64,000 nt of DNA. Source: Psammoneis japonica. Lineage: Eukaryota. The stretch spans positions 114,388 to 178,387 of the forward strand of contig QPGO01000100.1 of the NCBI GenBank assembly GCA_008632985.1, in the 5' to 3' direction. Shown here piece after piece: positions 19,689 through 61,280 of this stretch (positions are counted from its first letter, which is position 1; each line of letters opens with the position of its first letter). The notes beneath the pieces were generated by a model. That model was not told where the DNA came from and made no database searches. It saw only the letters and a program-made list of their open reading frames with translations. A program made the position numbers and the translations under genes.

Positions 19689-22600
19689 CTTCGTCGTCGT
19701 AGTGGCTCTTTGTAATTGTTGTTTGATGACCTACAAATCTCCAAAGCCCTTTGATTCAATCAATATAAGTGAGCAAAGGGTAGCGCTACAGAGTCGCTCC
19801 TTTTTTCTTCAACCACAGAAACGCAGAGCGATGACTGCTGTCGCCTTTACTTTACATACACACCGCACTGAGCACTTGGCAAGATCCAAGATTTGGAACA
19901 GTAGGGCTATGTATGATAGAAGCGCGTAGAACGCGTGATTCACCGAACTCCGCCGTTGAAGTACAAGTATATGAAATTATATCCATACTCTTTAAAAACT
20001 CAGTACAAATGTTAACGGTGTTCGTACTGTACCAGACATAGCAACAGGCTCGCGCGTATGGTACTGTAGATTTGTATGACACTGGAGCTCCGAAGAAATT
20101 CCGTCCTCCAGTGCGTTTGGCATTTTCGCAAGTGCAATCTTGTTGTGCGACAGGCGAATAAAGGGACGTTGAGTCAGTCTGTCCAGCATTCAGCAAAAAT
20201 CGAACACCAAGCTGACCAAACGACTGTTTCAGTGCAATTCTGCACAAGATTCTTCTTTGGACAGCTGATGTCCAGACTGGCCTGCTGAGTTGAAGGAAGC
20301 AGTGCAGGGAGCATGCCGGCCATGGCATGGTGCCAAGTGCCGCACTCAGCACGCAGCAGCTGAGGTGCGTGCAGCACATGCAGCAGCTCTGCTGCACTCT
20401 CAAAGAGCACGAAGGCAGACAAAGAGCATGTGCCAGTGTGGCGTCAGTGCTTTCCGCACATCTCTGAAATGATTGACTGCGCACCTTGATGACTGCAGCC
20501 ATGCATTGCAGGCTTTGCCAAAAATTGTCAACAATGATGGCAGTGTCGCACCTCAATGGAAACAAGTTTGAGCGTCACACATTGTAGAAATTTTTTAGTG
20601 GTCGCATCGTGCAACTGCAAAAAAGAAAAACAAGGCCTGCAGGAAAATTGACCACTTGTCTTTCTTTGTGAGTGTGTGCCGTTGCATGCTGCATTGCTTG
20701 TGCATGGGCAGGGCCCAATGGTGCATTCACCAGTGCAGGGCCCCGCTGCCAGGGCTGGCACTGCAGTGGCAGAGTGGCTGAGCCACCATGCCAGTGATGC
20801 AGATGACCATTGTGTTTGATGTGGCTGTTTTGTGTGCAATTCATGACAAATTGTTTTTGCAGAAAGCTCGGCACATTTTTCAACATGCCACACCGGCAAT
20901 CCCAATTTTGTGGCACTTTTGAGCTCTTTTAAAAAACAGTTCCATGCACCCATTGCAGGGAATTTGTTGATTTTTAGGAAGTTCCCACAACCTTGCATGT
21001 CCTCAGTGACAGCAATTCTCTGAATCCAAACAATTCATTTGCAACAAACAACACATGCTGTTTCACAATCCAAGAGAGACACACTCTCAAATTTGGACCA
21101 ACTGACCCCCCGACTGACCGACAGACACAAAAAAGTCTGCAATCACCAGCCACCAAGTGGTCAACAGAAAGATGTGGTTGACTCTCTGGTGTCTGTGACA
21201 CCTTCATTGACCTCAGAAGAGAATGGAGTCCTTGCCGGCCTGCTCCAGCTCTGTGTGTGGCACAAAACACCCCAGCCATTGCTGCTCTTTTTGGAGGAGC
21301 AGCACCTGCCACATTTTCAAACTGGCGGTTTTTCAGTTTTCACAACTTGGTGAGTGGAAAAAGTTGTCATCACACGAAGACAAATGAAGAGCTGTTTTTT
21401 TTTGTGCAATGACGGGCAAGTTTTTTGCAAAAAATGGCTCCATCTGTGTGTTTTTGCATGATTTCTTTGTGAGAAATGGCACACAAGAACCTCCTTGCCT
21501 TTTTTGTGCTCAATTTCTTGTTGTGACTGCCAATCTGCTCTCCTGCCTTGCCGCTGATGGTTGTCTTTGGAGTGCGCTTGTCATCTCCAAAAAAATGGCA
21601 CAAAGAGCAGCAGTTGTGCCAAAAAGTTTGATTTTGCACAACTTTGTGTGGCTTTTGTTGTGGCATGGATTGGGCACTGACAATGACTGGCTGGCAGACA
21701 ATGTGGCAAGCATCTTGCAGTGCAAGCTTGCCACAGCACAGGAAGCATGTGAGATGCAAATGCGTGTGTGCTGCACATGCCCACACAACTTGCACAAATC
21801 TGCTCTGAGCAGAGATGTGTTTGAGTGGGTTGCACATCAACTTTGCATGTGAGCACCAAGCTGTGTCAAGTGTGCAAAAATTTCACACACTCACAAAGAT
21901 GTGTGTGATGCAGTGATGCTCACCAAGCATCAAGACAAGGTTGGAGTGAACTCACCATTCATTGACAGAGAGACTTGTGTGTGCACAAGAAGCAGGTGCA
22001 CACTGCAGCTCAGCATTTCACAGCAAAATGCGCTGACTCAGAAATGGCCTCACAGCTGCTGTCAACAGTCCTTGCCACACAAGTGTGCAAAAAAAAACCT
22101 GCTGAAGCCAGTGGCACCACATTTGGTGGTGCCTGTCAAAGTCTCTTCCCAAAGCTGAAATCATGAAAAAGAGAATTGCCCCCACTCCAGAAAGCTGAGA
22201 TGCGCAAGCCACATGATTGACCTGCAGATGAAAATGGCCAAACATCCAAGCCAAGTGTGCCACACTTCAAAGCAGTGCTGGGATGTGTGCAAAGAGTGGA
22301 TGCTCTTGCTGCTGCACAGCTCCATGTGTGTGTCACCTGTGTTGCAGCCCAAACAAACATTGCTTCTGCACTGGAGCAATGCCTGCTCATGCACAGGCCA
22401 TTGAAGAGCAGTGCTCTGATGACATTCAATGACCAAGCAACAGGATTTGACATCATGTGGGAAAGCCAGCCAGAGACACTGCATGTGCTGATGTGGCAAT
22501 CAAAAGCATTTTTCCTGGGCAGAGAGCAATGCTGTGAAAACATTGTTTGAGCCATTTCATCTGCAAGCCCACAGAAATGAAAGCTTGGAGCTGCATTGCA

Positions 22601-23463
22601 AGGACTGTTGAGTTGAGCAGCTGCTTCTTGAGGAATTTTTTTCTGATCTTTGAAGATGGGGACACCCCTGAACCTCTGCCAGATGATGAGCTAGCAAATT
22701 TGTTTGAGCACAGAGTGCCCAATGTTCAAAATTTAAGTTCTCTTGCTCACAAGATCTCAGGGCTCACTCCATTTTGTGAACAGATTGAATGGGTTGAAGC
22801 CTCCAAAAGTGTGTTTTTCAAAAAGTTGCCCAGGTGGGTGAGATCTTTGACAGCGAACAGCAAGACAATCAAAAATTGAGTGACATTGTTGAAGCAGTGG
22901 TTGAGAACATGCTCAAGGGGGGTGGGGGGTCAAGAGAAAAGCTGACAATCAAAGAACTGAATGATTTGGAGCAGCTTTCGAAATCTGGAGACTCTGGGGA
23001 CAAATGAGATGTTTCTTTGTGCTCCAAGGTGGAGGCTGACATGACAGGAGCAACACAAACTTTTGGAGGCACTCATGATTGTGTTGGCATCAAAGTCAAT
23101 CAATGCGATTGTCTGGAGTTTCTTGACTTTTTATTTGATGGGGTGATCAAGAACAGCATTGGACTTGCAATGCAGCAATGCACGGGAAAGTGAGTGTGTG
23201 CATCACAGCATGATGGCCTTGCTGTGCGACGCTGAGGTGCCTGAGCTCAGATTTCAGGGCAAGTTTGTTGGGCCGAACCCATGACTGTCCCCTGCCTGAT
23301 GTTGTTGGCCTTTGCCATTTATGCTCTGCAATTGTGTCCCGTGATGCACTGTCACGGCCAATGTTTCCTCACTGGCATTTTAGGATCTGGCTCTCCAGTT
23401 TGTTCTTGGAAATGAACCTGAGATGGGCGCTGACTTGTGCCGCATTTTCTTGGACATTTGTCT

Positions 23464-24633
23464 TCAGTTTTTCTTAAGACAGAGGAACATGGAGAAAAAG
23501 TTGGTTTTCAACATGTCAGTGTTCCCTTTGCTTAATTTTGCAACTCAATGCCAGCGCGTGTCAAGCTTGTCTTCATTTCCATTGAGTGCCTCAAGGAGAG
23601 AGGGACTCATGAAGGACTGCATGATGCCCAGCTTGCCTGAAACAGTTTCCTTGACTGTCATGGGACATGCCATGGGCCAGCAACAAGACTCCTGCACACT
23701 CCAATCACTGGAGGTTTGAAGCGGCAAAAAGATCTCTGCTGGAGACTTGGCACACTCAGGCATTGCCATTTCTGCTGCTTCTTCCACCATGAAGACACCT
23801 TCATTGATCATCTGGGCCTTGGCTTGCTTGAGAGGAGTCTTTGCAACAGTTTCTTCCAGTTGACCATCTGGTCGTGAAGCCTGCACGACCAGGACGAGGA
23901 AGCCACCAGGGGCCATCTCCTGGGCTCTGAGCTCCAAGAACCACTCCCAATCACATCGCGAGGACTTGGCCCACTCAAGCCGAGATTCATCACTTGGTGG
24001 TGGCTGGTTGCCCCACAAACAAACACCGGTGAGGGTTGTTGGTGCTCCGTCATTCAACCAGTGCTGAGCTGGACAAGAGCAGGCAAGATTCACAGACCCC
24101 TTTGGAGCAACCAAGTCTTCGCACATTGATCACTTGGTGCACTCAAACTCAATGTTGGGGAAGACTGGCTCCATGGTTGCTTTGAGTTCATCCCAGTCAT
24201 TCAGTGGCATGTCATTGAGAGTGGCAATGATGTTGAACAGAACATCTTGGTCACCATGACTCTGGCGAATGCCTTCGAGGGTTGAATGCAAAGGTGCAAT
24301 CGAAGAACCACAGGTTGCACAGCCAAACTCTGCCACACAGAATCCGCGGGGAACCAATTTGTTGCTTGAAGCAATGGCTGCATGCTTTCTGAGCCATTGG
24401 CTTAGAACAGCGGTGGCCAAGGCCTGGGAGGCACTGTTCTTGTTGCAAGAATCGCTCTCCATCCGAACAAAAACCGAGGATCGCTTGTTCACAATGACCT
24501 GAATGAGCTTCTCCTGCGACAAGCAATGCAGGGTTTTGAGTCTGCCACTGACATGTGCAGCAATGCAAAACTTTCTCATTCTTTCCTGGACAGAAGGCAC
24601 GGTTGTGTCATCCTTCTTCTCATCTTGACCCAT
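23464..24633 (-). pseudogene. SAM-dependent carboxyl methyltransferase (SABATH / Methyltransf_7) pseudogene
   Basis: SCNKNSASQ, VAEFGCATCGSS, LNDMPLNDW, SMCEDL.P..SVNLACS..HWL, DWEWFLELRAQEMAPGG in one frame, with TGA stops at 24130-24132 and 23545-23547. Confidence 0.8.
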
Positions 24634-25279
24634 GGTCGATCATTCCATGGCAACACTGGCAACAGTTTGACAACCACACACATTGTGAGCAGGAACAAAC
24701 TCACACTCACAACTTCAACTTCAGAATTTAGATCAGAATGAGCGACGTCCCTCGTGTGTGGTTCTTGCATCATGCGAAGTGCACTGCTGGATCTTCAACC
24801 TCATTTTGGTCCAATTGGTCAAATGAGAGAACTTGTTCAGCTCCCTGGTGTGGATTTTAAGGCGGTTGAATGCATGCATCCCATGGCACCAGCCAAAGCA
24901 AATGCAGCAGGTGGTCACACCCAGCATCAAGCCATGAATGACACTGCAAGTGGGTCCTCACACATCTGAGGCATGGCATCGATGGCCAGTCACTGCACGA
25001 CCTCTCAAGTGTGGTGGGTCGTTGCTTCTGGCTGATGCTGTCAATCGTGTTAACTCTGCCACTCACTGGAGTGACTGCAAGCTCGCATGGGCATCTGCAA
25101 CATGCACTTCTGTGACTCCAGCTTTGCTTTGGATGGGCAACTTCAGAGGACACAACTGGCATCTGCTGGCAGCCACCAGCATTGAGTGCTCCCCCCATGA
25201 TTGGGGGTGTCATGAAAAACCAGCATGTGTCGCTGATGACAGAGGGCACCATCTGCTCCAGAGTGTGCACATCTGCCAG

Positions 25280-25982
25280 CAAACCATCTTGCAATGCAGT
25301 GTGCCATTGTGGTTGACTTGCACAACTGTGGCAGGACCTGCATGACTGTCAGCCCTGCACTTGGATTTTTGTGTTTTTGTTTGACGATGAGTGCCATTTT
25401 TGTCCTCATTCACATGGACAAGCTTCTGATTTCTGTCCCACACAGGTTTCCACTTGTTGGCTTGATGTGTGATGTTCAACATCACATCTCTGTTGAGTGC
25501 CAGCTGTGCCAGGCTTGCACATGTGGCAGTGTGAGCAGCTGCATTTTGTGCACAGCAAATGTGGCTTTGGAGAGAGTGCGCCATGCGGAGCACAATCTTC
25601 ATCCAATTCCATGTCCTGGGCTGAAAATGATCACATGTCATGTTCCTAGTCACATGATGCATGCCCTCTGCTGCAGTGCTTGTCTGTGGGCAGCTTTTGC
25701 TTGTGGGTTTCTTTTGGGGGCCACCACAGTCATCTTGAATCATCTGACCAAGTTTGGTCACAAACTTGGCTCCTCTGTCAAAGATGGCCTTCATCAGCCA
25801 TGGATGTCTGCATGGCCAGGTTTGTTTGATGACATTTGCTGCAATGTTGGCACATTTCATGGATGCTTGGGCAATTTTGAACCATCTCCAGTCACTGGAT
25901 TGGCTGCAGTTGCTGCCCACAAGTGTGGCAGTGTCTTGCCCTTGGTTGTTGCATTTGACAACATGTTCTTCATCATGTTTGT

Positions 25983-26013
<31 letters not shown>

Positions 26014-27330
26014 TCTCCCTGGGATGGTTTTCTGCCACCTTCTTAGGAAGCTTTCCATGTTTAAGATTGTGCACATCATTGTCTTCTGACACAAGTCAAG
26101 CTCAGAGCACATGGAGCCTCGTGCCTTGTCAGCGGAGGTGTTGGGCACAATGGAAATTTCTGTGTGTGTCTCTCCAGGATGATGCAGCTGAAAACATAGC
26201 GCCACTCAGTCAGCTGCCTCTGCAATGACTCTGGGATGCAAATTTTGTCCTCACAGCATGTCAGCTGCCTGTTTTTGGTGTTTCTTTTCCACAGAAAGAC
26301 CGTGTGGGAGCAGCTGCACCAAACACAGGCATTTTGTGACAGGCACCCATCCTTCTGCTGCTCCAATTGAAGTTTCTTGAAGCCAGCTTGAGCCATCATG
26401 ATTTTCTTTACTTTGCTGGACTTTGCAAAGACCTCTTCATGAGTCTTCACTTCAGGTGTTTCTGCAACCATTGCACCACATTCGGAGTCCAAACACAGTG
26501 CAATGTTGAGATGAATGATGCAGTCAGCAAACAAGCTGTGATGGCCTTTGCAGTTTGTCTCAAGAACTCAAGCCTGCACCACTTTTCATGCACCAAGCAC
26601 CAGTGCATGGCACACTTGGCATTGAGTGCTGCTTTGCACATGAGGTTTTGTAGATCCACATGCAAAAGAATGATTTTTGATGACCAAGGAGGACAAACCT
26701 GAACTCTTTCAGTGTCCCACAATTGCAGGCAATTCTCACACCATTCTTGTTGCACAATTTGCTCATTTGTGAGTGCAAAAATTGTTCCTGTTTGCACCCA
26801 AAAAATGCATGAAATGAGAGCATTGGGTGCTGCAATTGAAGCATGAGGATGATGATGACTGCAGCTGCTGCGATGCTTTTTCTCAAAAATGCAGTGCATC
26901 AGCATCTCACTCTAACCTGATGCTGATCATGCAATGCACAGCAAGAGTGCAGCACCAATGACAGCATCATGCTGGCATGTCTTTGTTTTACAAAGTTGTG
27001 GCCAGTTGTTCTTGCCATGGTGAAGCACGGCAAAGTTCAGAAAAAAAAACATGAAAATCATGAGCCATTTGGGCAAATTTGATGGAAAAAAGCAGTGAGC
27101 AACCAGCCAAGCAACCTTGAGCATTCTGCTGCAGAAGGCAGTGGGTTTGTCATCATGAGACAACATTGCTGCTCTCAGTTGATGTTCAGATGCACCGGCA
27201 CTGTGAGCCAGCCAGCTCCAGGTGATGAGCATTGGCGCACAATCCAACAACCAAAAATTGAAGTGGAAATTGTCTCTTTCCACATGGGGTGTGTGCACAC
27301 CCACTTTTTCATTTTTGGAGCTTGCGCTCC
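25280..27330 (-). mobile_element. Ty3/Gypsy pol relic (RNase H - integrase)
   Basis: ASEHQLRAA..KPTAFCSRML (cf. DAS.YQLGAV..KP.AFYSRKL); KICIPESLQRQLTEW..HPGETHT; IFDRGAKF..MIQDDCG..KP..PQ; ASLAQL..RDVMLNI; GPATVVQVNHNGT. Confidence 0.75.
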
Positions 27331-30300
27331 TGTTCTCTGCTGCTGCAGCTGTTGAGCTGATGATGTCACATTGTGCACTCAATTTTCCAGTCACCAGTGT
27401 GTCAATTTCTCCACTGATGAGTGCCAAAAAATTTCCTCTCCAAACTTCCTCTCCAGATGCCCACTTCCCACTCTCTTTTCACTCTGATGCACTGCTGTGG
27501 TGAAAAAAAATGGTGAAGCAGTCTGGGGCTGGCCACTGAAGCAAGTCAGGACCTGGCTCCTGCAAAAAAAAAGAATGTTGTTGCACAAACACATGTGCTT
27601 TCCAAGGAACCCCCATGCCCCCACATCATGCCAAGCTTGCAATGGTCATTCCCTCCAACTGCGCCTCTGACAATGCTGCCATGTCAGTCCCTCTGTTGTT
27701 CCAGGCACTGCTGCTCATTCTGACTTGACAGCTGCTGCCAAATTTCATGCCACAGAGTCATTTCCTTTTGATCCTCAAACATTTGCAAAACCAAAAAGAC
27801 CCTCATCAAGCACAGCATTGTGCTGCCACCAAAATGAGAGACACCATCTTGTCTTGTGCTGGCACCCCCAAAAGCAACAAGAGCTGTGACCCTTGCTCTG
27901 CACATTGTCTCCAGCTGACATCACTTTAATTGTCCATGCTTGTGGGGCTTGGTGTTGCCCAAGACAGTGGAAAATGCCATGCAAATGATCAAGCAGCTGG
28001 GGTGAAATGCAGGAACATGCCAATGACACAAAAGCAAAGGCAGCTGTGCTGATGACAAAAAAATCTTTTTGTCCATTCCATCACAACTGGAATCTGATTT
28101 TCTCAACAAGTCCAGTGGTGCACCCAAGCCATCATCACGCCAAATGAAAAAAGGAAAGAGTGCCACAGAGCAGCCTTGACTGAGGAGGAGGAAGCCAACA
28201 CAACATCATGTGGCTCTCATTGCAGCCTCATCAACAATCTCACAAAGTTTCCCTTGTCAAACAAATGAAAGTGATGCTGGTGGGGTTTGAGAGTGCACAA
28301 ATCAGCACTGGACATTTTGACCAAGCAAATTGCTGCACAAATTGTTGCCACCAGTCATGCTGCATTGACCTGTGTTTCAGAAGATGGCTTTTGTCTGCTT
28401 CCATGGGATGAGCTCCCCCACTGAGTCACAGAAGATGCTGCACAGAGTGAGCCCAATCTGCTGGTCCCAGTCAAGTCCAGTGGGTGGGTTTGCAAGGGAG
28501 CACATTTCAGCTGTGTTTGAAGAGCCAGAGGAAAGTGCATGCCTGGACAATCTTCTGACTGTCAAATGAGAGCACTGCTCAAGGAGCAAGTTGCAACAAC
28601 AAGTGCAGAGCTAAGTGAGCCACAGCTGCCTCATCTGCAACTGTGAAGGACTTGAAGCAGAAGCACTGCACCCATTCTAAATCCCTCACATTTGAACAAC
28701 AACAAGGAGCATGAAGTCATTCTCAATGCAGCTTGCCAATGAGAGACATTGGGCTGTTGTAGGGAGAAGTGGGATGATGAGGAAAGTGACATGAAAGAGC
28801 TGAATGAAGAGAACAAAGACAATGATCTGTTGAAGCAAGAGTTTGACAGCAATGATCACCAAGCTGTCAAAAAGGAGGTGGACATTTTTGGTGCCAAACA
28901 CAACACAAAAACTCAGGTTTGTGTCCCCAAGCCACATTGTCTCTGACACTTTCTGCTTTCCAAGGTTCTTTTTGGCAAACTTGGGGAACTCAAACTTGTG
29001 CCACTGACACTTGCAAGCTCAGTCCCACACAATGCTCTTGCCAAATCATGCCATTGGTTGCCAAGATGCCAACAACTCAACCACACAGAACACTGCCAGC
29101 AGGCAAAGCACAACCATGGTTTGAGTAAAAAATCAAATCCCATTGCACAAAAGCAGCAACGCAGCACACAATGGCTCTTGTTCACCAAATGGCACAATGC
29201 AGCCAGTGCATTGATTGTCAAACATGGTGACAACCCTTTGGCTGCTCTGCACAACCATTTTTGGGGTTTCCTTGATGTGGGTTTCTTGCAGTTGCCAAAT
29301 CATGCTTGCAGCAACCAAGAAGCAATTGTTGTTTGTTTTGGTTGCTCATGTCTGCGAATCAATGTGAGATGCAATGCAATCCCTTGCTTGGAGAACACAC
29401 ACACAAATGAAGGACACTTGACAGAGACAAAAATGTGCAAGAGTCTTTTGGCCTTTTGCAGAAATTGCACTTGTTGTGCCAAAAACACAGGCACCACATC
29501 AATGTTAGAATGTGGCAGCACATTTCTTTCTGGCAAAGTGTGCATGTCTCCAGGTTTTAAAGCCAGAAGATCTTTCCAAACTCATGAACAAAGAGTCTTG
29601 AAATTGCACTCTGCTCACTCCAATGAAACACACACTCTCTTGCTCCATTTGGTGGTGTGGCCACAAAAGCAAAAATCCTCTGCTGCATTTCTCATGTCTT
29701 TGAGCATTTGAATCTCTTCTGCAACAGGCATCAACCTCTTGAAACTGCAGAGTCAGAAACAGTTGCAAATGCAAGCAACCTTGTTTTCAATGATTTTTTG
29801 CCTGCTTGATTGACGTCCACTGCAATTTTTGGTGTGCCTCTGCTGCTGAGTGAATGACTTCCATGCAGCTTGTCATCTTCCCACCACAAGATTTTGAGTT
29901 GCAAGGATCTGTGAACCAAGCTTTGCACAGCATTCACAGTGTGCACTTCTCTGGCTTTGCCACAGAATGTTGACTTCACAGGATGTGGCTGTTTTTGGCC
30001 CAAGTGCTTGCTGGAGCAGAGTTCCAAAAATGAGGCAACCACTGCATGCCCTGAGAGACAGATTGATGCATGTGCAATCTCTGTGAGGCAAAGTCAAAGA
30101 CAAAATCACACAGTCAAGCAAACAAGATGATCAGAAGTTGGAGATGGCAACAAGAAAGCTGCAGCAGTGCCAAGTGTTGGGGGGGGCACAAGTGGGTTTG
30201 TTGATTTTGTGCTGGTGCCTCAGGTGGTTGATGGCTGAATCTGTGTGCATGAATGCCACTCCATTGCTTGGCACAACATTCACACTCAAGCAGAGAAACA

Positions 30301-51126: not shown

Positions 51127-51329
51127 GTTGTCAACCGAACAATCTGTGTTTATGTGGCACAATGGGTGCCAATCAATGCAACAAAAGTGGGTTCGATGAA
51201 GCAGCCTCCACCCATGCGGTGATTTATTCCAAAACGTGACGTTGCGTTCCTCACAGTCCGTTGCTTGCGCTTGTTTTTTAGTTTTACTTGCTCGGGTGTG
51301 CACCGTTTAGGCCCTGTAGGATGACGTGG

Positions 51330-54315
51330 CAAGATGTCAAGTTTGTGTGCATTCAGTGTCGCACTTTTCTCCACGCAAAAAGCATGGGTTGACCATGGGA
51401 TTCCCGACGAAGAAGAGCATTCTGTTGGGCTATCTAATTTGCTTCTTATCTTACTTTTCTACATCAGAAGGCATTGGATCAATGAAGCTGACCAACATGG
51501 GGATTTGCAACCTGGTTTTTTCTGCTTTTGGAAAAGTGTCCAGCACCTCTTGCTGACGGGACATGTCATTGCAAAATCAAGGAAGCACAACCCAATCTAG
51601 AGAGTCTTGGGTTCAAGCCTTGGGCAGAAAAGATGAGAGCAATCTTGACAACTTTGACTCAAATCAGAGTGGCAGCAGAGGCGCTGCACATCAAAATCAA
51701 GTCCACACTGCACGGCCAGTTGACTGACATGGGGAAATGGAGGACAGTGTTCCCAAAAGAAGACACGTTGTTGTGCACTGTGTTGCTGATCCATCCCAGC
51801 AGGTTGAGAAACCACTCAAAGAGGCAGGTTCTTTTCAAAGGCTTCTGAAAGTTTTTGGGGTGTGGCTGCACTCACATGACAAACGTCATCGGCGCGAATT
51901 GAGAGGAGAGACATGCAGAGCTGGGGGCTGAAATGCAGGTGGAGCCCCCATGCACTCAGCTGTTTAATCTTCAGAGAGCTGCTGCTGCAAGAAATGAAGG
52001 CAATCCACAATCTGGCAAAACTTGTTGGGGCAGTCCAGAGGCCAAAAAACTGTTTCCTGGTGATTCCAGAGAAGTGAGGAAAATGTGGCGGCAGCTCTGG
52101 AGTGATGCACATCATCAACAGACCACAACAAGTTGGCAAGAAGACACATGAAAGACAGACCAAGGTCATCAATCAATGTGGCAGGGACCAAATCTCTGCA
52201 GCCCTCATGATGCGAACCTTGTGTCACAAAGAAATCTTGCTTTGGGTGGCATTGGCCCAGGCAACAGGCACGCAAGGATGTTGGCAGGAGAGAGGAGGGA
52301 GCTTTGGCAGGCAGAGAAGGAAGGGCAGGAGTCAGAAAAGTTGGAGAGGACAGTCCAAGGTGGCTTTGGGCATGGAAAAAAGCCAAAGAAGAAAGAATGG
52401 AAATGATGGCCAGTGGTCAAAGGGGCAAAGTGTTGGCAAAGGCCATTGAGAGAGGCCAAGGGTTTCAACAATGGCACGGGTGGGATTGTGGGTGTGTGGT
52501 TGGAGAGGGAGCCATTGTGCATTTTGGGGCACACAGAGGCATGGTCATTGAAGGGGTCAAAGGAAGAGTGCAGCTGCAAGGGCAGGGCAAGTGCCAGAGG
52601 TCTGGAGGGTGGCAAGGTGACAGAGCTTGTGAAGGAAAAGAAAGGCAATTTGGAGGGGGAAAAGGCAGCTGCATGGGTGGAAGGAGTGGAGACAGAGCAG
52701 GCTGGCAAGCTGGGGAAAGAGCAGAAGGGGGGTTTTGAAGTTGGGGTGTTGAAGGATGAAAAGGAGAGCAGTCTGATGTGGGGTGTTGCACAGGTGGGCA
52801 CATTGGGCAAGGCCTCAGAGGTGCATTGTGTGGCCAGAAAGAGCAGTGGGAAGCAAGGAGTCAAAGATGGGAGAGCAAAAGAGCCAAAAGACAACATGGA
52901 GGCAGAGGCAAGAGCGGGAGTCAGACAAAGAGGCAAGATGAGCAGAGTGGCTGGGTGGCAAAGAGAAGAGTTGGTCACAAGTGGGGGACACCTCCATGTT
53001 TGGCAAATCAGGAGCAGGGCGGCCAGGAAAGGGAGATGACAAGAAGGAGGAGGGAGGCAACAGCAATGGCTGAGACATCAGCCAAAGCAGCTGATGCCAC
53101 ACCAAGGGAAGCAGAAGGGAGAAGGGCAACAAAAAGAGCTGCAGCAGGGAAGGGGTGGGGTGGGGGGTCACTGTGAGGTGGGAGAGGAAGTGGAGAGAGT
53201 GTGCCCAATGACAGAATCAGCAAAGGGAGAGGCCCTGTGAAAGAGGTTTTGGGTGGGTGTCGGGGGACAGGAGGTTGCAGCAGGCACCAGCAGCAGAAAA
53301 AAAGCAACAGATGCTGGGCCAGAGGGGGTGGAGCAATTGCAGGAGAGTGTGCTTTGGGTTTGCAGGCACCAAGGGCAGCAGAGGTCTTGGGCAAAGAGGT
53401 GGAGGAGGCAGCCTTGGACAAAAGAAAGTTCATGGAAGCAAGTTGCTGACCAAGAATGTGGGCACCAACAGCAAATTCAAGATGTGTGTCAACAGTTGTT
53501 GACAAGACAAGGCATTCTTGGAGAAGGTGGCATCATCATCTGGAGAGAGGGAGTGAGGGGAGTCAGAGATGGAAGCGAAGAGATTTTTGTTTTAAAAAAA
53601 ATTGAGGACAATGCCAAGGGGAGGGCCTGGGTGGGTCAGATGCTCAAGGAACCAAGGCATGACAAAGTGGGGCAGAAAGGCATGGTGTGTTTGTGCACTG
53701 AAGCAATCCAGAGATTGCTGTTTTGTTGAGCTGTTGACCCAGCCCGCAAAGAGGCAGGCCTCAAATGAATCAAAACACTTTGTGAAAAAATGTGAGTGTG
53801 GAGCTTCAATCTTCTTGAGCCACAATGCTCCCCACTCTCCAGGAGCTTTTTGTTGTGTTGCTTGGCATGAAAAATGTGCTTGTTGAGCAACAAACATGGG
53901 CACACATGATTCATGAGAGACGGCGCCACTCAACCGCTCGCAAAACAACGAGTGAGCTCCCCACCAGAATTGCCGCAAGCAAACAAGCTTTTGATTTTGC
54001 CAGCTTTTGCAGCATTGATTCACAATTGTTTTTGGGACAAACACAGAATGTGCATGATCATTGAGATGCCACTCTGCTGGCAAGCAGAAGCTCCCCAGCT
54101 GCTGTGAGCAAGCAACCTTTTGCTTTGGCCAGCTTTGCAATGTTGATCTGCAGCTGTTTCTGTGCCTCCCACTGGGAGAAGACGTTTCTCAACACCAGCA
54201 CCAGCAGCACAGTTTCACCTGGGTGTGCCATGGCCATTGGCAAGAGGGGTTTTTTTTGGGGGAAAAGACTGACGATGACACAACATGCAGTCCCAGCTGT
54301 TGGAGATGGGACTTC
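51330..54315. other. TpA/CpG-depleted spacer X1
   Basis: Converted composition with a purine-rich middle; family not recognised. Confidence 0.9.
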
Positions 54316-54560
54316 AATGCCGCTGCTGCTGCCGCGCACACAGTTTTGCGCGATCATGGAATGGAGTCTGTCTTGTCCATGTGCATTGCTGCAAGTGTTG
54401 AAGCATCATTTTAGGAGATGCAGCAACATTCCTCTTTTGAATGTCCGCCCCATAAATGGAGTAGCATTGAAAGAGTTGCTGCTCTCAGTGAGCAAGTTCG
54501 AGATTACGCACGGGAAGAACAAGTGGTGCGACAAAGGTGCATTGAATTAATTCGGCTGTG
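54316..54560 (+). pseudogene. 3' fragment of the 48752-49966 gene, TA-converted
   Basis: Aligns to 49724-49960 with Y>H/C changes and a TAG stop. Confidence 0.9.
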
Positions 54561-54726
54561 TTACCTTGCTCTGTTGCAATCATGTGCCGCACTTGCTGTT
54601 TTGGTGCTTTTGTTGAATGTGATTACTTCCACAAGGAGAAAACTCCGCGGGGTCGCGCCCCGCACCCTCCTTTTACCTCGTTTGGAATCAAGCCAAGAAG
54701 GGAACCAAGTTCTTCTTTATTCGCTG

Positions 54727-55715
54727 TCAAACAGACAACTGCGTCGACAAATAGTTTGCCAGCTCTCGGTGCCCTGTCGGGTTGGGATGCAAAGCGTTGG
54801 TGATTGGGCTTGTCTCAAATTCCCAGATCCAGCGATCGGGATTCTTAACAAATGGTTTCGGGTCAGTCTCGTGTCCAGCAAAGAGGCTCATTGTGTCCAC
54901 AAACTGAAAGGTGGGACCATTGGGGATCGCATTGGCAGTGGCGACAGCTCGTTCAAAGGTCGCCTTCTGCTTGTCTGCAAAGGTGCGGCATTCCTTGCGC
55001 ACATTGATGGCAATGAAAAAGCCAAACAACCAGTCGTTTTTGTCTGGCACAAGGTGCGGGTGGTTGACCATGGCCACTGTGGCTTGGCTGGACAATTTCG
55101 TCGCAAGCTCAGAGAACATGGCATCAAGTTGGTCCTCAACAGCGGGTAAGGTGGCAGTGGCTTCCGCTAGCTCCTTTCTGCAATTGCGTGCATTTCGTGT
55201 AATGAGGCAGGCTCTGGTCATCTCGGGAAACCCAGCATCATTGCCGCCAACCGAAATGAGCACCAGGTCGGTGGACGCATCGACAGCCTCGATCTGTTTC
55301 TTCAAGCACCGAGTGCACAACAAGCCTTCTTTCTCAAACTCTTCATCTTGGTTTTCCGGAGGACAAGAACCAAGAAATGTGTTCTTCTCTCTGCGATTGG
55401 TGATGTCCTCGACTCGTCCATTGCAACAAGCTCGATTGACAAAAGAGTCAGCAGCAGCAAGCGAGTCGGCATGCTGGCTAGCCCAACCAGTGCCGCAGGG
55501 CTCCGAGCACAGCCACTCGGCCCATCGTAATTTTCCTTTCCAAACTCGTCGCGCGCTCCGGTTCCAGAGGCAAATGAATCGCCAAGTGCCACCACATTGA
55601 GGGCGACCGAGACATGAGGACACAAGAACAACATCGGCATTAACAGTCCCACAGACAGCGATGCGGCTTTCACTGCTTTGATTGCTGATGAGACGGTGTT
55701 CATAGAGTCTGACAT
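54727..55715 (-). pseudogene. SGNH hydrolase copy B (chimera of A and C, frameshifted, TA-converted)
   Basis: 5-bp insertion within 55491-55497; CYNG>CCNG, RYL>RCL, NYP>NHP, EYR>ECR relative to copy A. Confidence 0.92.
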
Positions 55716-55929
55716 GTTGTCAACCGAACAATCTGTGTTTGTGTGGCACAATGGGTGCCAATCAACATGACAAAAGCAGGTTCGATGAAGCAGCCTCCAC
55801 CCATGCGGTGATTTATTCCAAAACGTGACGTTGCGTTCCTCACAGTCCGTTGCTTGCCTGCACGCTTGTTTTTTTGTTTTTCAGTTTTACTTGCTCGGGT
55901 GTGCACCGTTTAGGCCCTGTAGGATGACG

Positions 55930-58909
55930 TGGCAAGATGTCAAGTTTGTGTGCATTCAGTGTCGCACTTTTCTCCACGCAAAAAGCATGGGTTGACCATG
56001 GGATTCCCGACGAAGAAGAGCATTCTGTTGGGCCATCTAATTTGCTTCTTGTCTTACTTTTCTACATCAGAAGGCATTGGATCAATGAAGCTGACCAACG
56101 TGGGGATTTGCAACCTGGTTTTTTCTGCTTTTGATGAAGTGTCCAGGGCCTCTTGCTGATGGGACATGTCATTGCAAAATCAAGGAAGCACAACCCAATC
56201 TAGAGAGTCTTGGGTTCAAGCCTTGGGCAGAAAAGATGAGAGCAATCTTGACAACTTTGACTCAAATCAGAGTGGCAGCAGAGGCGCTGCACATCAAAAT
56301 CAAGTCCACACTGCACGGCCAGTTGACTGACATGGGGAAATGGAGGACAGTGTTCCCAAAAGAAGACACGTTGTTGTGCACTGTGTTGCTGATCCATCCC
56401 AGCAGGTTGAGAAACCACTCAAAGAGGCAGGTTCTTTTCAAAGGCTTCTGAAAGTTTTTGGGGTGTGGCTGCACTCACATTGCAAACGTCGTCGGCGCGA
56501 GTTGAGAGGAGAGATGCAGAGCTGGGGGCTGAAATGCAGGTGGAGCCCCCATGCACTCAGCTGTTTAATCTTCAGAGAGCTGCTGCTGCAAGAAATGAAG
56601 GCAATCCACAATCTGGCAAAACTTGTTGGGGCAGTCCAGAGGCCAAAAAACTGTTTCCTGGTGATTCCAGAGAAGTGAGGAAAATGTGGCGGCAGCTCTG
56701 GAGTGATGCACATCATCAACAGACCACAACAAGTTGGCAAGAAGACACATGAAAGACAGACCAAGGTCATCAATCAATGTGGCAGGGACCAAATCTCTGC
56801 AGCCCTCATGATGCGAACCTTGTGTCACAAAGAAATCTTGCTTTGGGCGGCATTGGCCCAGGCAACAGGCACGCAAGGATGTTGGCAGGAGAGAGGAGGG
56901 AGCTTTGGCAGGCAGAGAAGGAAGGGCAGGAGTCAGAAAAGTTGGAGAGGACAGTCCAAGGTGGCTTTGGGCATGGAAAAAAGCCAAAGAAGAAAGAATG
57001 GAAATGATGGCCAGTGGTCAAAGGGGCAAAGTGTTGGCAAAGGCCATTGAGGGAGGCCAAGGGTTTCAACAATGGCACGGGTGGGATTGTGGGTGTGTGG
57101 CTGGAGAGGGAGCCATTGTGCATTTTGGGGCACACAGAGGCGTGGTCATTGAAGGGGTCAAAGGAAGAGTGCAGCTGCAAGGGCAGGGCAAGTGCCAGAG
57201 GTCTGGAGGGTGGCAAGGGTGACAGAGCTTGTGAAGGAAAAGAAAGGCAATTTGGAGGGGGAAAAGGCAGCTGCATGGGTGGAAGGAGTGGAGACAGAGC
57301 AGGCTGGCAAGCTGGGGAAAGAGCAGAAGGGGGGTTTTGAAGTTGGGATGTTGAAGGATGAAAAGGAGAGCAGTCTGATGTGGGGTGTTGCACAGGTGGG
57401 CACATTGGGCAAGGCCTCAGAGGTGCACTGTGTGGCCAGAAAGAGCAGTGGGAAGCAAGGAGTCAAAGATGGGAGAGCAAAAGAGCCAAAAGACAACATG
57501 GAGGCAGAGGCAAGAGTGGGAGTCAGACAAAGAGGCAAGATGAGCAGAGTGGCTGGGTGGCAAAGAGAAGAGTTGGTCACAAGTGGGGGACACCTCCATG
57601 TTTGGCAAATCAGGAGCAGGGCGGCCAGGAAAGGGAGATGACAAGAAGGAGGAGGGAGGCAACAGCAATGGCTGAGACATCAGCCAAAGCAGCTGGTGCC
57701 ACACCAAGGGAAGCAGAAGGGAGAAGGGCAACAAAAAGAGCTGCAGCAGGGAAGGGGTGGGGTGGGGGGTCATTGTGAGGTGGGAGAGGAAGTGGAGAGA
57801 GTGTGCCCAATGACAGAATCAGCAAAGGGAGAGGCCCTGTGAAAGAGGTTTTGGGTGGGTGTCGGGGGACAGGAGGTTGCAGCAGGCACCAGCAGCAGAA
57901 AGAAAGCAACAGATGCTGGGCCAGAGGGGGTGGAGCAATTGCAGGAGAGTGTGCTTTGGGTTTGCAGGCACCAAGGGCAGCAGATGGGCAAAGAGGTGGA
58001 GGAGGCAGCCTTGGACAAAAGGAAGTTCATGGAAGCAAGTTGCTGACCAAGAATGTGGGTGCCAACAGCAAACCCAAGATGTGTGTCAACAGTTGTTGAC
58101 AAGACAAGGCATTCTTGGAGAAGGTGGCATCATCATCTGGAGAGAGGGAGTGAGGGGAGTCAGAGATGGAAGTGAAGAGATTTTTGTTTTAAAAAAATTT
58201 GAGGACAATGCCAAGGGGAGGGCCTGGGTGGGTCAGATGCTCAAGGAACCAAGGCATGACAAAGTGGGGCAGAAAGGCATGGTGTGTTTGTGCACTGAAG
58301 CAATCCAGAGATTGCTGTTTTGTTGAGCTGTTGACCCAGCCCGCAAAGAGGCAGGCCTCAAATGAATCAAAACACTTTGTGAAAAAATGTGAGTGTGGAG
58401 CTTCAATCTTCTTGAGCCACAATGCTCCCCACTCTCCAGGAGCTTTTTGTTGTGTTGCTTGGCATGAAAAATGTGCTTGTTGAGCAACAAACATGGGCGC
58501 ACATGATTCATGAGAGACGGCACCACTCAACCGCTCGCAAAACAACGAGCGAGCTCCCCACCAGAATTGCCGCAAGCAAACAAGCTTTTGATTTTGCCAG
58601 CTTTTGCAGCATTGATTCACAATTGTTTTTGGGACAAACACAGAATGTGCATGATCATTGAGATGCCACTCTGCTGGCAAGCAGAAGCTCCCCAGCTGCT
58701 GTGAGCAAGCAACCTTTTGCTTTGGCCAGCTTTGCAATGTTGATCTGCAGCTGTTTCTGTGCCTCCCACTGGGAGAAGACGTTTCTCAACACCAGCACCA
58801 GCAGCACAGTTTCACCTGGGTGTGCCATGGCCATTGGCAAGAGGGTTTTTTTTGGGGAAAAGACTGACGACGACACAACATGCAGTCCCAGCTGTTGGAG
58901 ATGGGACTT
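55930..58909. other. TpA/CpG-depleted spacer X2 (duplicate of X1)
   Basis: Near-identical to 51330-54315. Confidence 0.92.
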
Positions 58910-59165
58910 CAATGCCGCTGCTGCTGCCGCGCACACAGTTTTGCGCGGTCATGGAATGGAGTCTGTCTTGTCCATGTGTATTGCTGCAAGTGTTGAAGCG
59001 TTATTTTGGGAGATGCAGCAACATTCCTCTTTTGAATGTCCGCCCTATAAATGGAGTAGCATTGAAAGAGTTGCTACTCTCAGTGAACAAGTGCGAGATT
59101 ACGTAGGGCCCTACGGGAAGAACAAGTAGTACGACAAAGGTACATTGAATTAATTCGGCTATATT
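58910..59165 (+). pseudogene. 3' fragment of the 48752-49966 gene
   Basis: Aligns to 49724-49960; 8-bp insertion within 59104-59113. Confidence 0.9.
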
Positions 59166-59329: not shown

Positions 59330-60310
59330 TCAAACAGACAACTGCGTCGACAAATAGTTTGCCAGCTCTCGGTGCCCAGTCGGGTTGGGATGCAAAGCGT
59401 CGGTAATTGGGCTTGTCTCAAATTCCCAGATCCAGCGATCGGGATTCTTAACAAATGGTTTCGGGTCAGTCTCGTGTCCAGCAAAGAGGCTCATTGTGTC
59501 CACGAACTGAAAGGTGGGACCATTGGGGATCGCATTGGCAGTGGCGACGGCTCGTTCAAAGGCCGCCTTCTGCTCGTCTTCAAAGGCGCGGTATTCCTTG
59601 GGCATGTTGATGCCAATAAAAAAGCCAAACAACCAGTAGTTTTTGTCTTGCACTTGGTGCGGGTAGTGGACCATGGCCACTCTGGCTTGGCTGGACAGTC
59701 TCGTCGCAAGCTCAGAAAACATGGCATCAAGTTGGTCCTCGACAGCGGGTAAGGTGGCGGTGGCTTCCACTAGCTCATTTCTACATTTGTGCGCATTCCG
59801 TGTAATGAGGCAGGCGGTGGATATCTCGACAAACCCGGCATCAATGCCGCCAACCGAAATGAGCACCAAGTCGGTAGACGCGTCAACAGCCTCAATCTGT
59901 TTCTTCAAGTACCGAGTGCAGAACAGGTCTTCTTTCTCAAACTCTTCATCTTGATTGTCAGGAGGACAAGAACCAAGAAACTTGTTCTTCGCTCTGCGAT
60001 TGGTAATGTCCTTGACTCGTCCATTGGAACAAGCTCGATTGACAAAAGAGTCAGCAGCAAGCGATTCGGCATACTGGCTAGCCCAACCAGTAGGGCTCCT
60101 AGAACAGCCACTCGGCCCATCGTAATTTTCCTTGCCAAACTCGTCGCGCGCTCCGGTTCCAGAGGCAAATGAATCGCCAAGTACCACCACATTGAGAGCT
60201 TCCGAGACTTGAACACAGAATAACAATAACAGCAGCATCAATAGCCCCACAGACAGCGATGCGGCTTTCATAGTTTTGATTGGCGAGACTGTGAACATAG
60301 AGTCTGACAT
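59330..60310 (-). CDS. Secreted SGNH/GDSL hydrolase, copy C
   Basis: Intact ORF; GDSFASG and DALHPNPTGH; block III reads GGID rather than GGND. Confidence 0.88.
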   Translation of the reverse strand: MSDSMFTVSPIKTMKAASLSVGLLMLLLLLFCVQVSEALNVVVLGDSFASGTGARDEFGKENYDGPSGCSRSPTGWASQYAESLAADSFVNRACSNGRVKDITNRRAKNKFLGSCPPDNQDEEFEKEDLFCTRYLKKQIEAVDASTDLVLISVGGIDAGFVEISTACLITRNAHKCRNELVEATATLPAVEDQLDAMFSELATRLSSQARVAMVHYPHQVQDKNYWLFGFFIGINMPKEYRAFEDEQKAAFERAVATANAIPNGPTFQFVDTMSLFAGHETDPKPFVKNPDRWIWEFETSPITDALHPNPTGHRELANYLSTQLSV

Positions 60311-60555
60311 ACTGCCAACCGAACACACTGTGTGAGTGAGACAATGGGTGCCAATCAAAAACAAAAACAGGTGCGGGGGTGAATAAGCGCCGCGCCCTCG
60401 TGCTTCCAACTTCCAAGCGCTCCAAGTTTTTTGCGTGGTTGACAGATAACTCTGAAGAAACAGATCCGGCCGGCCGGCCGGCCGGGCGGGCGGCTTCGGG
60501 CGGACGACGTCGAGCGAGCGACCACATCTTCTACTCTCTAGCTCTACAGTAGCTA

Positions 60556-61280
60556 GAAAGCAGATGAGGGAAAGCTTGGTGTCTCCTTTGCCAGTTCTCT
60601 GCCAAGAATCACCAAAGTGTCGGAGTCGTCAAGCCACGTCGGTCTCATCGAGAAATCAGAAACTGTCACTGGCTTGATCATTCCTGGAGTGATCAAGATT
60701 TGTGGCTTTGGAACATCCCAGCTGCTGTCTCTGCCAAAAACCCACTCAGCTGTTGAAGGGAAGGTCCTGCTTGTTTCCAGCTTGGGCGGAACAGAATCTG
60801 AAGAATCTGGTGGTTGCGGATCGCACATTGTTCTCAAGAAGACATGGAAGGTCAAAGAGTGCCAAGTCGCAACTGAAAAGAGCTTTTCATTTCATGGTCC
60901 AGTGCCCTCGAGCCTCATCCAAGTTGTCAACGAAAATCTCGCAATGATCAAGCCAGTGCAAGGCACTGGCACCATCAAGTTCTCACTTGATGATTCTGGC
61001 CACCACCATGCCAACATGATGCACAACTGTCAAAAATGCGTGAGGAAGACGCACTTGTGTGCATCTGTGACACGATGGAAGCTTTGGGACATCAGTGCCT
61101 CCATCAATTTGATTCGGAAACATCATCCACCAAAGTTGTTGGTGGGTTGTCATGCACTGCACGAGAAATGTTTCTCTTCCACAAGGATTGACCATCTAAA
61201 TTCCTGTCACGTGCGTCCAGGCGCATGAGACATTGGACAACATTGTTTTCTGACCATGAATGCATTGGAAGCATCCCAGA
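60556..61280. other. TpA-depleted but CpG-retaining relic
   Basis: No TA seen from 60556 to 61196, while about 17 CG remain (hand count). Confidence 0.8.

Follow-up and report, generated by a model that had tools for sequence, protein, structure and literature searches.

To our knowledge, natural adenine editing in nuclear DNA was close to unknown before a single preprint of 2026. This work describes Bigelowiella natans, in whose integrated viral DNA a hypermutation of TpA to TpG or CpA was measured (bioRxiv 10.64898/2026.01.13.699255). According to the available part of the preprint, two integrated viral regions received 231 of the 302 mutations found in mutation-accumulation lines. All but one of these (230/231) were A>G or T>C changes, and the GC-biased ones all lay on TpA. 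The per-generation rate was about 1000-fold over background and the process was active in some lines only. Furthermore, the genome contains 124 TpA-poor, CpA+TpG-rich clusters, with an excess of reverse transcriptase and DDE domains among their gene models. The Discussion of the preprint refers to the deaminases TadA/ADAT2-ADAT3 and ADAR, which convert A to I (G) with a preference for a 5' U/T neighbour. CpG is not mentioned in the available text, so that a coupling to CG loss is without precedent there (bioRxiv 10.64898/2026.01.13.699255).

The window analysed here, which is the whole stretch of 64,000 nucleotides, encodes proteins that are closest to those of diatoms (stramenopiles). It records a TpA-erasing process of the B. 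natans kind and adds a second lineage, saturation, an extended target motif and a coupling to CpG decay. The statement in the preliminary description of this DNA that no account of such a process was known is outdated, given the hypermutation measured in B. natans.

Composition and limits of the TA-poor blocks

Blocks were called using sliding windows, event density and a two-state HMM, which resulted in sharp bounds. The five core blocks (20609-34906, 40881-45131, 46991-48521, 51461-54320 and 56100-58867; 25,708 bases in sum) together retain 54 TA (observed/expected ratio, o/e, 0.03) and 193 CG (o/e 0.13), compared to about 899 TA and 1444 CG expected at the normal o/e of the window (Poisson log10 P of about −302 for TA). 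CA and TG reach o/e values of 1.87 and 1.77 in these blocks, while the rest of the window shows o/e values of 0.54 for TA, 0.94 for CG and about 1.2 for CA/TG. The GC content is nearly equal inside and outside (0.49 vs 0.48) and AA is not depleted (o/e 1.21 vs 1.16). Simulated conversion of 94.5% of TA and 86% of CG to TG/CA in the normal DNA of the window gave a profile of the 16 dinucleotides that matches the blocks (r 0.98). Over the 12 remaining dinucleotides, r was 0.80 after conversion and 0.64 for unmutated DNA.

Separate HMMs run for TA and for CG revealed TA-poor domains that are wider than the core blocks (20076-35023, 40873-45212, 46864-48543, 51461-58978 and 60555-61283), the last of them being a sixth block with 1 TA. 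Neighbouring open frames sit 150-460 bp from the HMM limits, and the TA o/e is 0.87-1.0 in normal intergenic stretches (5-6 kb and 7-8.5 kb). Hence, the TA-poor regions are bounded and adjoin DNA of normal composition, as in B. natans. The preliminary description had placed blocks stripped of nearly all TA and CG between 20165 and 61280 and had proposed sliding TpA and CpG ratios genome-wide; within the window, sliding ratios, event density and the HMM agree on sharply limited blocks, and the separate HMMs add the sixth, with TA-poor limits from 20076 to 61283. The loss of TA and CG in the blocks is thus confirmed as genuine.

The process had also been described as repeat-targeted, which is not supported within the window: the blocks are single-copy there, except for blocks 4 and 5, which are tandem paralogues of about 99% identity, and a young inverted repeat at 16.3-17.9 kb (arms 97% identical) is untouched, with normal TA. 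Both observations speak against RIP, which acts on duplicates, although some portions of the blocks recur in other parts of the genome (see below). RIP usually leaves a high TpA/ApT and a low (CpA+TpG)/(ApC+GpT) index. Here both indices run in reverse (0.04 in the blocks vs 0.59 outside, and 2.05 vs 1.28, respectively), which is opposite to the chemistry of RIP, in which C>T changes at CpA raise TpA.

Table 1 Features of the window. Positions count from the first letter of the window; TA and CG values are observed/expected ratios (o/e) unless given as counts.
Feature	Position	Strand	Description
MULE-type transposase relic	3..2021	+	PF10551 (E 7.9e-5, below the Pfam cut-off), weak SWIM; beyond the coordinates of the main finding
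Block 1 (TA-poor domain)	20076..35023		42 TA, TA 0.04; CG-poor core 20609-34939
SABATH-type SAM carboxyl methyltransferase pseudogene	23548..24639	-	PF03492; in block 1
Ty3/gypsy-type integrase core relic	25231..25887	-	Inside open frame 25213-26205, block 1
Block 2	40873..45212		TA 0.03, CG 0.11; covered by run X1 contigs
Block 3	46864..48543		TA 0.03, CG 0.17; covered by run X1 contigs
GDSL-lipase copy A	50143..51303	-	Open frame intact; region with 57 TA; used as the reference to polarise copy B
Block 4	51461..54320		TA 0.02, CG 0.14; purine-rich on the + strand
GDSL-lipase copy B	54321..56099	-	Frameshifted pseudogene between blocks 4 and 5
Block 5	56100..58978		TA 0.02, CG 0.15
GDSL-lipase copy C	59330..60409	-	Open frame; region with 57 TA; used as the outgroup to polarise copy B
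Block 6	60555..61283		TA-free but for 1 TA, TA 0.02; CG 0.50, half left

Relics, direction and order of the changes

Most of the block sequence has no recognisable homologue. The targets identified are one Ty3/gypsy integrase relic, one weak MULE relic and two dead host-type genes, lipase B and the methyltransferase. Six-frame Pfam scans (in block 5 restricted to open frames from about 150 residues upwards) detected no transposable element domain in the blocks, Pfam and homology searches revealed no recognisable coding relic in block 2, and no viral homology was found among the block sequences searched. Of the transposable element relics previously assigned to six blocks, the integrase relic in block 1 therefore stands, and none was found in the other blocks.

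The integrase relic has 121 homologues (best E 1.2e-15); among 12 homologues scanned by Pfam, 11 contain rve, 8 also Integrase_H2C2, and 5 also RVT_1 and RNase H. The relic lacks Tyr completely, is composed of 5.5% Cys and 7.0% His, and carries His, His, Cys and Ala at four columns where the homologues favour Tyr. The methyltransferase relic likewise contains no Tyr in 364 residues, and a single TGA interrupts its frame at a position that is Arg in a homologue. At the 11 Tyr positions of its homologue P0241, none of which is kept, it shows Cys six times, Phe twice, and His and Arg once each; the eleventh column is Ser beside an inserted Cys. In lipase B, three positions at which copies A and C keep Tyr are occupied by Cys, His and Cys. 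The Tyr>Cys/His changes noticed initially are consequently found in three relics, and coding capacity is destroyed as had been proposed: Tyr becomes Cys or His, and TAA and TAG are almost gone from the blocks (29 and 19, compared to 677 TGA).

Lipase B provides the direction of change. It contains 25 TA compared to 57 in each of the other copies (TA o/e 0.23) and has a CG o/e of 0.78, which means that TA loss is in progress here while CG is kept. Of 26 changes specific to copy B (A = C), 16 are TA>CA or TA>TG (8 each), a footprint rather than de novo events, read from one mosaic paralogue in which gene conversion could mis-assign some changes; beyond this paralogue, the polarisation comes from a few Tyr columns. 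The others are 3 CG>TG/CA, 3 reverse changes, 2 further transitions and 2 transversions. Lipases A and B differ at 19 columns of their recently shared part outside the blocks, and 9 of these show TA versus TG/CA. The preliminary description had called for polarised spectra from transposable element copies versus consensus; the spectrum of this paralogue, together with the protein homologues, bears out its view that, besides the decay of CpG, a second process acts in situ on bounded, putatively silent domains and produces A:T>G:C transitions that are specific to TpA. The footprint in the window comprises the 16/26 changes in lipase B, the replaced Tyr of the three relics, a TA o/e of 0.03, doubled CA/TG and unchanged AA, and thus corresponds to TpA transitions of the B. 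natans type.

The TA that survive are not a random sample. In the blocks, 40 of the 54 residual TA lie in YTAR, and 20 of the 54 are TTAA; normal DNA has 197 YTAR among 1287 TA (odds ratio for YTAR 15.8, P 1.5e-20). RTAY is absent (0/54), compared to 376/1287 in normal DNA. Partly depleted regions lost ATAT, ATAC and ATAA first and TTAA, GTAA and CTAA last. Survival of YTAR and extinction of RTAY point to a putative target that consists of TA followed by a pyrimidine, read on either strand. The strand direction that such a TAY rule predicts was right for three of four asymmetric contexts, with ACAA vs ATGA going the opposite way, and 10 of the 16 polarised lipase B events fit the rule.

TA loss is faster and further-reaching than CG loss. 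TA-poor domains cover 29.2 kb and CG-poor ones 26.1 kb, the block edges show a graded loss of TA first and then CG, and TA was lost with CG kept in lipase B, in block 6 (CG o/e 0.50) and in the MULE relic. The latter is a single frame with three in-frame stops and represents an early stage of the same process, since its TA o/e is 0.17-0.36 while its CG o/e is about 0.83. The CG deficit with a reciprocal TG/CA excess in the blocks is what CpG decay of the 5-methylcytosine type leaves behind. Blocks 4 and 5 differ at 33 columns, of which 11 are CG versus TG/CA and none involves TA.

Proposed mechanism and alternatives

We consider it likely that two regional processes rewrote these putatively silent blocks, a fast one from TpA to TpG/CpA, which would be enzymatic adenine deamination in the service of defence, and a slower decay of CG. 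Composition, sharp limits, direction, context rule and order are read from the window itself, and the enzymatic step and its defensive role would be the mechanism behind the first process. The blocks would represent silent DNA amid active genes, in which remains of retroelements and dead gene copies lie among unrecognisable sequence. Confined to chromatin domains, the first process would act on the A of TA in both strands, converting A:T to G:C, and favour an edited A that is followed by a pyrimidine (TAT > TAC), so that TA would survive only with a purine on both strands (YTAR, above all TTAA); it would already have run to saturation. Its chemistry (A>inosine>G) would be the mechanism proposed for the B. 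natans hypermutation, and by being aimed at silenced chromatin it may kill the coding capacity of invading DNA. The second process, CG>TG/CA, is probably ongoing, and its simplest source would be deamination of 5-methylcytosine in silent DNA that is presumed to be CG-methylated; CG methylation of diatom transposons has been reported (PMC9998398). The window provides a footprint rather than a mutation rate, and part of the block composition could be inherited.

TA is palindromic, and A:T>G:C changes at TA do not separate adenine deamination from a thymine-side lesion. In silent chromatin, an enzyme of the TET/JBP or another type might modify T at TpA to a base like 5-hydroxymethyluracil or base J, and mispairing or repair would then lead to T>C; the context rule on that strand reads RTA. 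The composition, the polarised changes and the context fit T>C as well as A>G, and 5-hydroxymethyluracil of dinoflagellates prefers TpA. Still, we know of no established mutagenic T>C pathway of this kind, and the authors of the B. natans preprint prefer an ADAT2-like deaminase, in the available text by homology only, so that we regard a thymine-side lesion as rather unlikely.

The joint loss of TA and CG in the core blocks might also be explained by error-prone patch repair, in which 5-methylcytosine deamination in methylated DNA would bring in non-canonical mismatch repair together with a polymerase-eta-like enzyme that makes A>G errors at WA. The WA rule of such errors predicts AA>AG as well, whereas AA is as frequent in the blocks as outside. 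In addition, TA was lost where CG is intact, namely in lipase B, block 6 and the MULE relic, and the B. natans hypermutated regions show virtually no C>T in the available data. We therefore hold this explanation to be very improbable.

Base-calling or polishing errors at modified heterochromatin bases could, in principle, write TG/CA for TA or CG. In the public run X1, contigs with a word depth of about 58-65 span 33000-49000 and represent blocks and genes equally. Mismatches to the window are scattered, with 4 letters in 40906-43200 and 2 in 33000-34355, which shows that the contigs are not a verbatim copy. The word depth rises to 214 at 41544-42077, and 38 of the 95 contigs placed overall are 90-95% alike, which indicates additional genomic copies of some parts of the blocks. 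The bases, for which the preliminary description had asked for an independent sequencing platform, are thus confirmed with partial independence: the contigs reproduce the block letters, but X1 stems from one sample that is possibly the source of the assembly, and the platforms of both are not on record. Nevertheless, k-mer contigs at about 60-fold word depth give one consistent call per site, where a base modified on both strands would yield conflicting TG and CA reads. Polarisation by paralogue and protein and a frameshifted pseudogene are moreover ordinary evolutionary patterns, and an artefact appears highly improbable. That the blocks arrived as foreign, e.g. viral, DNA already avoiding TA and CG would suit the lack of homologues for most block sequence, yet it is barely conceivable given the graded edges with TA loss before CG loss and the derived TA>TG/CA changes of the host-type lipase B and methyltransferase relics relative to paralogues and homologues.

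If adenine deamination is the correct reading, the window would show its end state in a second group of algae, one that is distantly related and dominates ecologically, and the process is probably not the quirk of one species. The sharper target (TA plus pyrimidine, YTAR resistant) would be a biochemical prediction for candidate deaminases, and the natural enzyme behind the signature a candidate of interest for base editing. The loss of TA is ahead of CpG decay, and it can reach into a copy of a host gene that is enclosed by silent blocks. As regards annotation, relics lose all Tyr and drop below Pfam detection; with TAA and TAG nearly absent and only TGA stops remaining, spurious open frames are inflated. 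The signature may serve as a cheap, sequence-only marker for silent chromatin. It may be speculated, as a tentative possibility, that a TAY-specific, chromatin-directed DNA adenine deaminase is an old genome defence common to stramenopiles and rhizarians, perhaps wider, which acts beside and ahead of cytosine methylation and erases TA from silenced invaders and trapped host genes. In this case Tyr codons, TAA/TAG stops and TA target sites would be erased along with TA, and two lineages would offer a comparative handle for finding the enzyme.

Comparison with known systems

RIP of ascomycetes resembles the process in being regional and in wrecking the coding capacity of unwanted DNA by dinucleotide-specific transitions. 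However, its C>T changes at CpA create TpA, whereas the blocks lose it, and no dependence on duplication was seen in the window. CpG decay by 5-methylcytosine deamination is matched by the CG o/e of 0.13, the TG/CA excess and the CG versus TG/CA differences still arising between blocks 4 and 5, but accounts for the CG half of the signature only; the underlying methylation, reported for transposons of diatoms in the available source (PMC9998398), is presumed here.

The polynucleotide adenosine deaminases TadA/ADAT2-ADAT3 and ADAR share the A>I(G) chemistry and, as cited in the B. natans preprint, the 5' U/T preference. Their natural substrates, however, are RNA. ADAR prefers a 3' G, in contrast to the 3' pyrimidine preference of the blocks.

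The closest likeness is with the NCLDV and virophage DNA of B. natans as described in the available text: transitions turn TpA into TpG/CpA, they are confined to bounded regions, which are silent or foreign in B. natans and putatively silent in the window, and in the long term they leave TpA-poor, CpA+TpG-rich clusters. The differences are a chlorarachniophyte host there and a diatom-like window here, a measured rate there and a footprint here, and a Rho of 0.45 in the active NCLDV region as opposed to blocks saturated at an o/e of 0.03. In the present blocks CpG was lost too and dead host-type genes were hit, and their extended TAY target with its resistant YTAR context is a feature to be set beside the B. 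natans type.

Composition and limits of the depleted blocks

In sliding 1-kb windows over 20-61 kb, the observed/expected ratio (o/e) of TA fell from ~0.5-0.7 to 0.00-0.08 and that of CG from ~0.9-1.1 to 0.02-0.3. TG/CA rose from ~1.2 to 1.8-2.1 and the GC content remained steady at ~0.48-0.52. Core blocks were called by a two-state HMM on TA and CG events together, and the TA-poor and CG-poor domains were delimited by separate HMMs; the limits obtained recovered the six blocks and the coordinates of the preliminary description. The five core blocks, 25,708 bases in total, contain 54 TA (o/e 0.03) and 193 CG (o/e 0.13), compared to ~899 TA and ~1444 CG expected at the normal o/e of the window (Poisson log10 P for TA ~ -302). 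When normal DNA of the window was altered in a simulation, with 94.5% of TA and 86% of CG converted, it matched the block profile (r = 0.98) and also gave its secondary shifts, namely lower AT and higher GC.

Positions of the blocks, repeats, relics and lipase copies
Feature	Positions	Strand	Remarks
Core block 1	20609-34906		two-state HMM
Core block 2	40881-45131		two-state HMM
Core block 3	46991-48521		two-state HMM
Core block 4	51461-54320		two-state HMM
Core block 5	56100-58867		two-state HMM
Block 6	60555-61283		TA-poor, about half of CG left
TA-poor domains (29.2 kb)	20076-35023, 40873-45212, 46864-48543, 51461-58978, 60555-61283		TA HMM
CG-poor domains (26.1 kb)	20609-34939, 40881-45358, 46991-48521, 51409-54320, 56012-58867		CG HMM
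Weak MULE transposase relic	3-2021	+	E 7.9e-5, under Pfam cut-off; three in-frame stops; outside the blocks
Helicase-associated (HA) domain, weak	2811-3647	-	open frame; E 1.8e-4, under cut-off
Nested inverted repeat	15919-18028		arms 16453-16730 / 17224-17501 at 97%, outer arms 80-85%
SABATH-type methyltransferase relic	23548-24639	-	block 1
Integrase relic	25213-26205	-	block 1; open frame of 331 residues; tblastn placement 25231-25887
Tandem duplication	49723-55784 vs 54315-60375		plus third partial lipase copy
GDSL-lipase copy A	50143-51303	-	
GDSL-lipase copy B	54321-56099	-	between blocks 4 and 5
GDSL-lipase copy C	59330-60409	-	

On the plus strand of the blocks (20609-58867) we counted 29 TAA, 19 TAG and 677 TGA, and TGA is therefore nearly the sole stop remaining. 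Spurious open frames of 150-330 codons are frequent on both strands, so that block open frames can mislead gene callers. The open frame at 43654-44583 was considered as a protein and rejected (Protein Atlas recognition 809, not protein-like). Blocks 4 and 5 (52001-54000, 56001-58000) have long open frames on both strands and a strong purine excess on the plus strand (GC skew ~0.35, AT skew ~0.25-0.28).

The base calls were compared with two public sequencing runs of one sample. The first, stored as read-derived contigs with a word depth of ~58-65, contains 89% of the words sampled from 38500-47500, and its contigs over 33000-49000 have equal depth on blocks and genes. They differ from the window by four letters in 40906-43200 and two in 33000-34355; since the differences are scattered over both genes and blocks, the run is no verbatim copy of the window. 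Its independence is only partial, because the sample may be the source of the assembly and there is no record of the platform. Among 12 listed in-block differences, two carry TA in the run against CA or TG in the window, two concern CG, and one is a double change at 33375-33376 in block 1 (CA in the run, TG in the window), as would result from two haplotypes having resolved a single ancestral TA or CG in different ways. If the signature were an artefact of modification on both strands, conflicting TG and CA reads would be expected instead of one consistent call. Summed word depth reached 214 at 41544-42077 in block 2 compared to ~59 alongside, and 38 of the 95 contigs aligned to the window are only 90-95% alike; diverged copies of block portions exist elsewhere in the genome. 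The second run (30 Mb of contigs) matches only gene parts (35191-40444, 45305-46723) and no block. It looks like a transcriptome, and the absent block cover is no evidence.

Direction, order and sequence context of the changes

The tandem duplication carrying the GDSL lipases is the one large repeat of the window. In a three-way alignment, copy B shows 26 changes at positions where copies A and C agree. Of these, 16 are TA>CA (8) or TA>TG (8), accompanied by three CG>TG/CA, three changes in the reverse direction, two other transitions and two transversions. Copies A and C each contain 57 TA in the aligned lipase regions, and copy B contains 25. The near-identical part of A and B outside the blocks has 19 differing columns; nine of them oppose TA to TG/CA, with the TA in copy A in seven and in copy B in two.

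The encoded proteins changed accordingly, with Cys or His where homologues have Tyr, which confirms the first reading of the sequence for lipase B and for the methyltransferase and integrase relics. Three sites that are Tyr in both A and C are Cys, His and Cys in lipase B, and the Tyr counts are 6 in A, 1 in B and 8 in C. None of the 364 residues of the methyltransferase relic is Tyr; opposite the 11 Tyr of its homologue, the relic has six Cys, one His, two Phe, one Arg and one Ser beside an inserted Cys, and its sole in-frame TGA aligns with Arg, which fits CGA>TGA. The integrase relic also contains no Tyr. Compared to its homologues it has more Cys (5.5% vs 1.4%) and His (7.0% vs 3.0%), and at the four columns with Tyr in 4 or more of 12 homologues it carries His, His, Cys and Ala. 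Together, the lipase substitutions and Tyr replacements indicate that TA and CG are ancestral, that TG/CA is derived and that the changes occurred in situ.

The two losses proceeded at different speeds. TA loss extends beyond CG loss by 533 bp on the left side of block 1, through all of lipase B and in block 6, and the MULE relic shows TA loss alone (TA o/e 0.17-0.36, CG ~0.83). The ~99% identical blocks 4 and 5 differ in 33 columns, of which 11 are CG versus TG/CA, one is a CA/TG double change and none contains TA. TA had therefore run out by the time of that duplication or conversion, and CG decay is ongoing. In the region 49600-60700, three GDSL-lipase units are arrayed in tandem with a depleted block after each. 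Their identity is mosaic (A-B ~99% in the centre and 86-90% at the ends, B-C 84%), which suggests recent gene conversion or nested duplication.

The 54 TAs surviving in the blocks lie in TTAA (20), TTAG/CTAA (15), CTAG (5) and all other contexts (14). YTAR accounts for 40 of them compared to 197 of 1287 TAs of normal DNA (odds ratio 15.8, P 1.5e-20), and RTAY for none compared to 376 of 1287. Relative to normal DNA, block density is 0.48 for TTAA, 0.26 for CTAA, 0.085 for CTAG and no more than 0.035 for every other context. Where depletion is partial, ATAT, ATAC, ATAA and ATAG are the first to go, in this order, and CTAA, GTAA and then TTAA the last. The simplest reading of these contexts is an activity that would act on the A of TA and require a 3' pyrimidine (T > C). 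As TA is palindromic, a site would therefore be safe only with a purine 3' of A on both strands. The strand choice predicted by this TAY rule agrees in three of four asymmetric contexts (for example, GCAA 552 vs GTGA 242 in the blocks) and fits 10 of 16 polarised events, which is weak backing for the rule.

Relics, host affinity and targeting

When the open frames of the blocks and their six-frame read-throughs were scanned with Pfam, the methyltransferase relic, which has an intact homologue at 55% identity, was the sole match. No TE domain was detected by a six-frame scan of blocks 1-4 (stops read as X) or in open frames of at least ~150 residues in block 5, a ~99% copy of block 4; the single 203-residue open frame of block 6 gave nothing. 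The TE relics originally reported for the blocks are only partly confirmed, by the integrase relic of block 1. This relic has 121 homologues at E <= 1e-3 (best 1.2e-15). Of 12 that were scanned, 11 contain the integrase core, eight also the integrase zinc domain and five also RVT_1 and RNase H, an architecture that, judged from these domains, is that of Ty3/gypsy Pol. A tblastn search of the window with ten retroelement Pol homologues recovered the integrase core only and no RT or RNase H relic. Lipase B, whose N-terminal part lies in a different frame, is a frameshifted pseudogene.

Long open frames, for the most part without interruption, flank the blocks. Their products are a class-3 lipase, a PPR protein, a RING protein, a 7TM receptor, an amino-acid transporter, an SNF1/AMPK-like kinase, the three GDSL lipases and an RNase Z-like protein. 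The kinase shares 69-70% identity with Phaeodactylum, Thalassiosira, Fragilariopsis and Triparma proteins. The RNase Z-like protein shares 64-66% with environmental proteins, 52% with Ditylum brightwellii and just 34% with a chlorarachniophyte protein. These identities place the host among the ochrophytes, most likely the diatoms, and not in Bigelowiella. Protein Atlas was taxonomically uninformative on the kinase. A first metagenome scan for relatives of the RNase Z-like gene, seeking the signature in kin, gave no match; a profile scan gave 80 loci, which with few exceptions were distant (23-34% identity for most) and presumably prokaryote-like and served solely as a composition control. One open frame outside the blocks has a weak match to the HA domain, which is expanded in diatoms.

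The blocks occupy entire intergenic spaces and stop ~150-460 bp from the adjacent open frames; elsewhere, at 5-6 kb and 7-8.5 kb, intergenic DNA still has a TA o/e of 0.87-1.0. The AT-rich inverted repeat (GC 0.43) has a normal TA o/e of 0.67-0.75 and is a young foldback or MITE-like element from which the TA process is absent. The proposed targeting of repeats is not supported, since this 97% repeat at 16.3-17.9 kb is untouched and duplication per se is therefore no trigger. A chromatin state would be the most economical candidate for the targeting signal.

Comparison with known systems

Decay of CpG by 5mC-type deamination would account for the CG half of the block signature only; diatom transposons are reported to be CG-methylated, in dependence on DNMT5a (PMC9998398). 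RIP is excluded by TpA/ApT of 0.04 and (CpA+TpG)/(ApC+GpT) of 2.05.

The TA half matches a process in Bigelowiella natans, described in a 2026 preprint (bioRxiv 10.64898/2026.01.13.699255). Of 302 mutations in mutation-accumulation lines, 231 lay in an integrated NCLDV region and a virophage region; 230 of these 231 were A>G or T>C, and the GC-biased ones were all at TpA. The rate was ~6e-7 and the effect appeared only in 11 of 15 lines. The genome contains 124 TpA-poor and CpA+TpG-rich clusters, and the authors propose an ADAT2-like deaminase and note an Asn that would enable such proteins to act on DNA; CpG, diatoms and stramenopiles are unmentioned in the text. By the preprint's criterion, 54 of 127 windows were positive here compared to 0 of 1048 in a control of 597 kb of unrelated metagenome loci. 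A full-text literature search for TA-specific hypermutation in diatoms or others found this preprint alone.

The original observation and its core inference were borne out, and the chemistry then held to be undescribed is now described in B. natans. For the mechanism (adenine deamination versus a thymine-side lesion or repair error), as for the targeting signal, we rely on inference. Beyond B. natans, our data add a second major lineage, a process run to saturation, the YTAR-resistance rule, the order of TA first and CG later, and an extension into trapped host genes.
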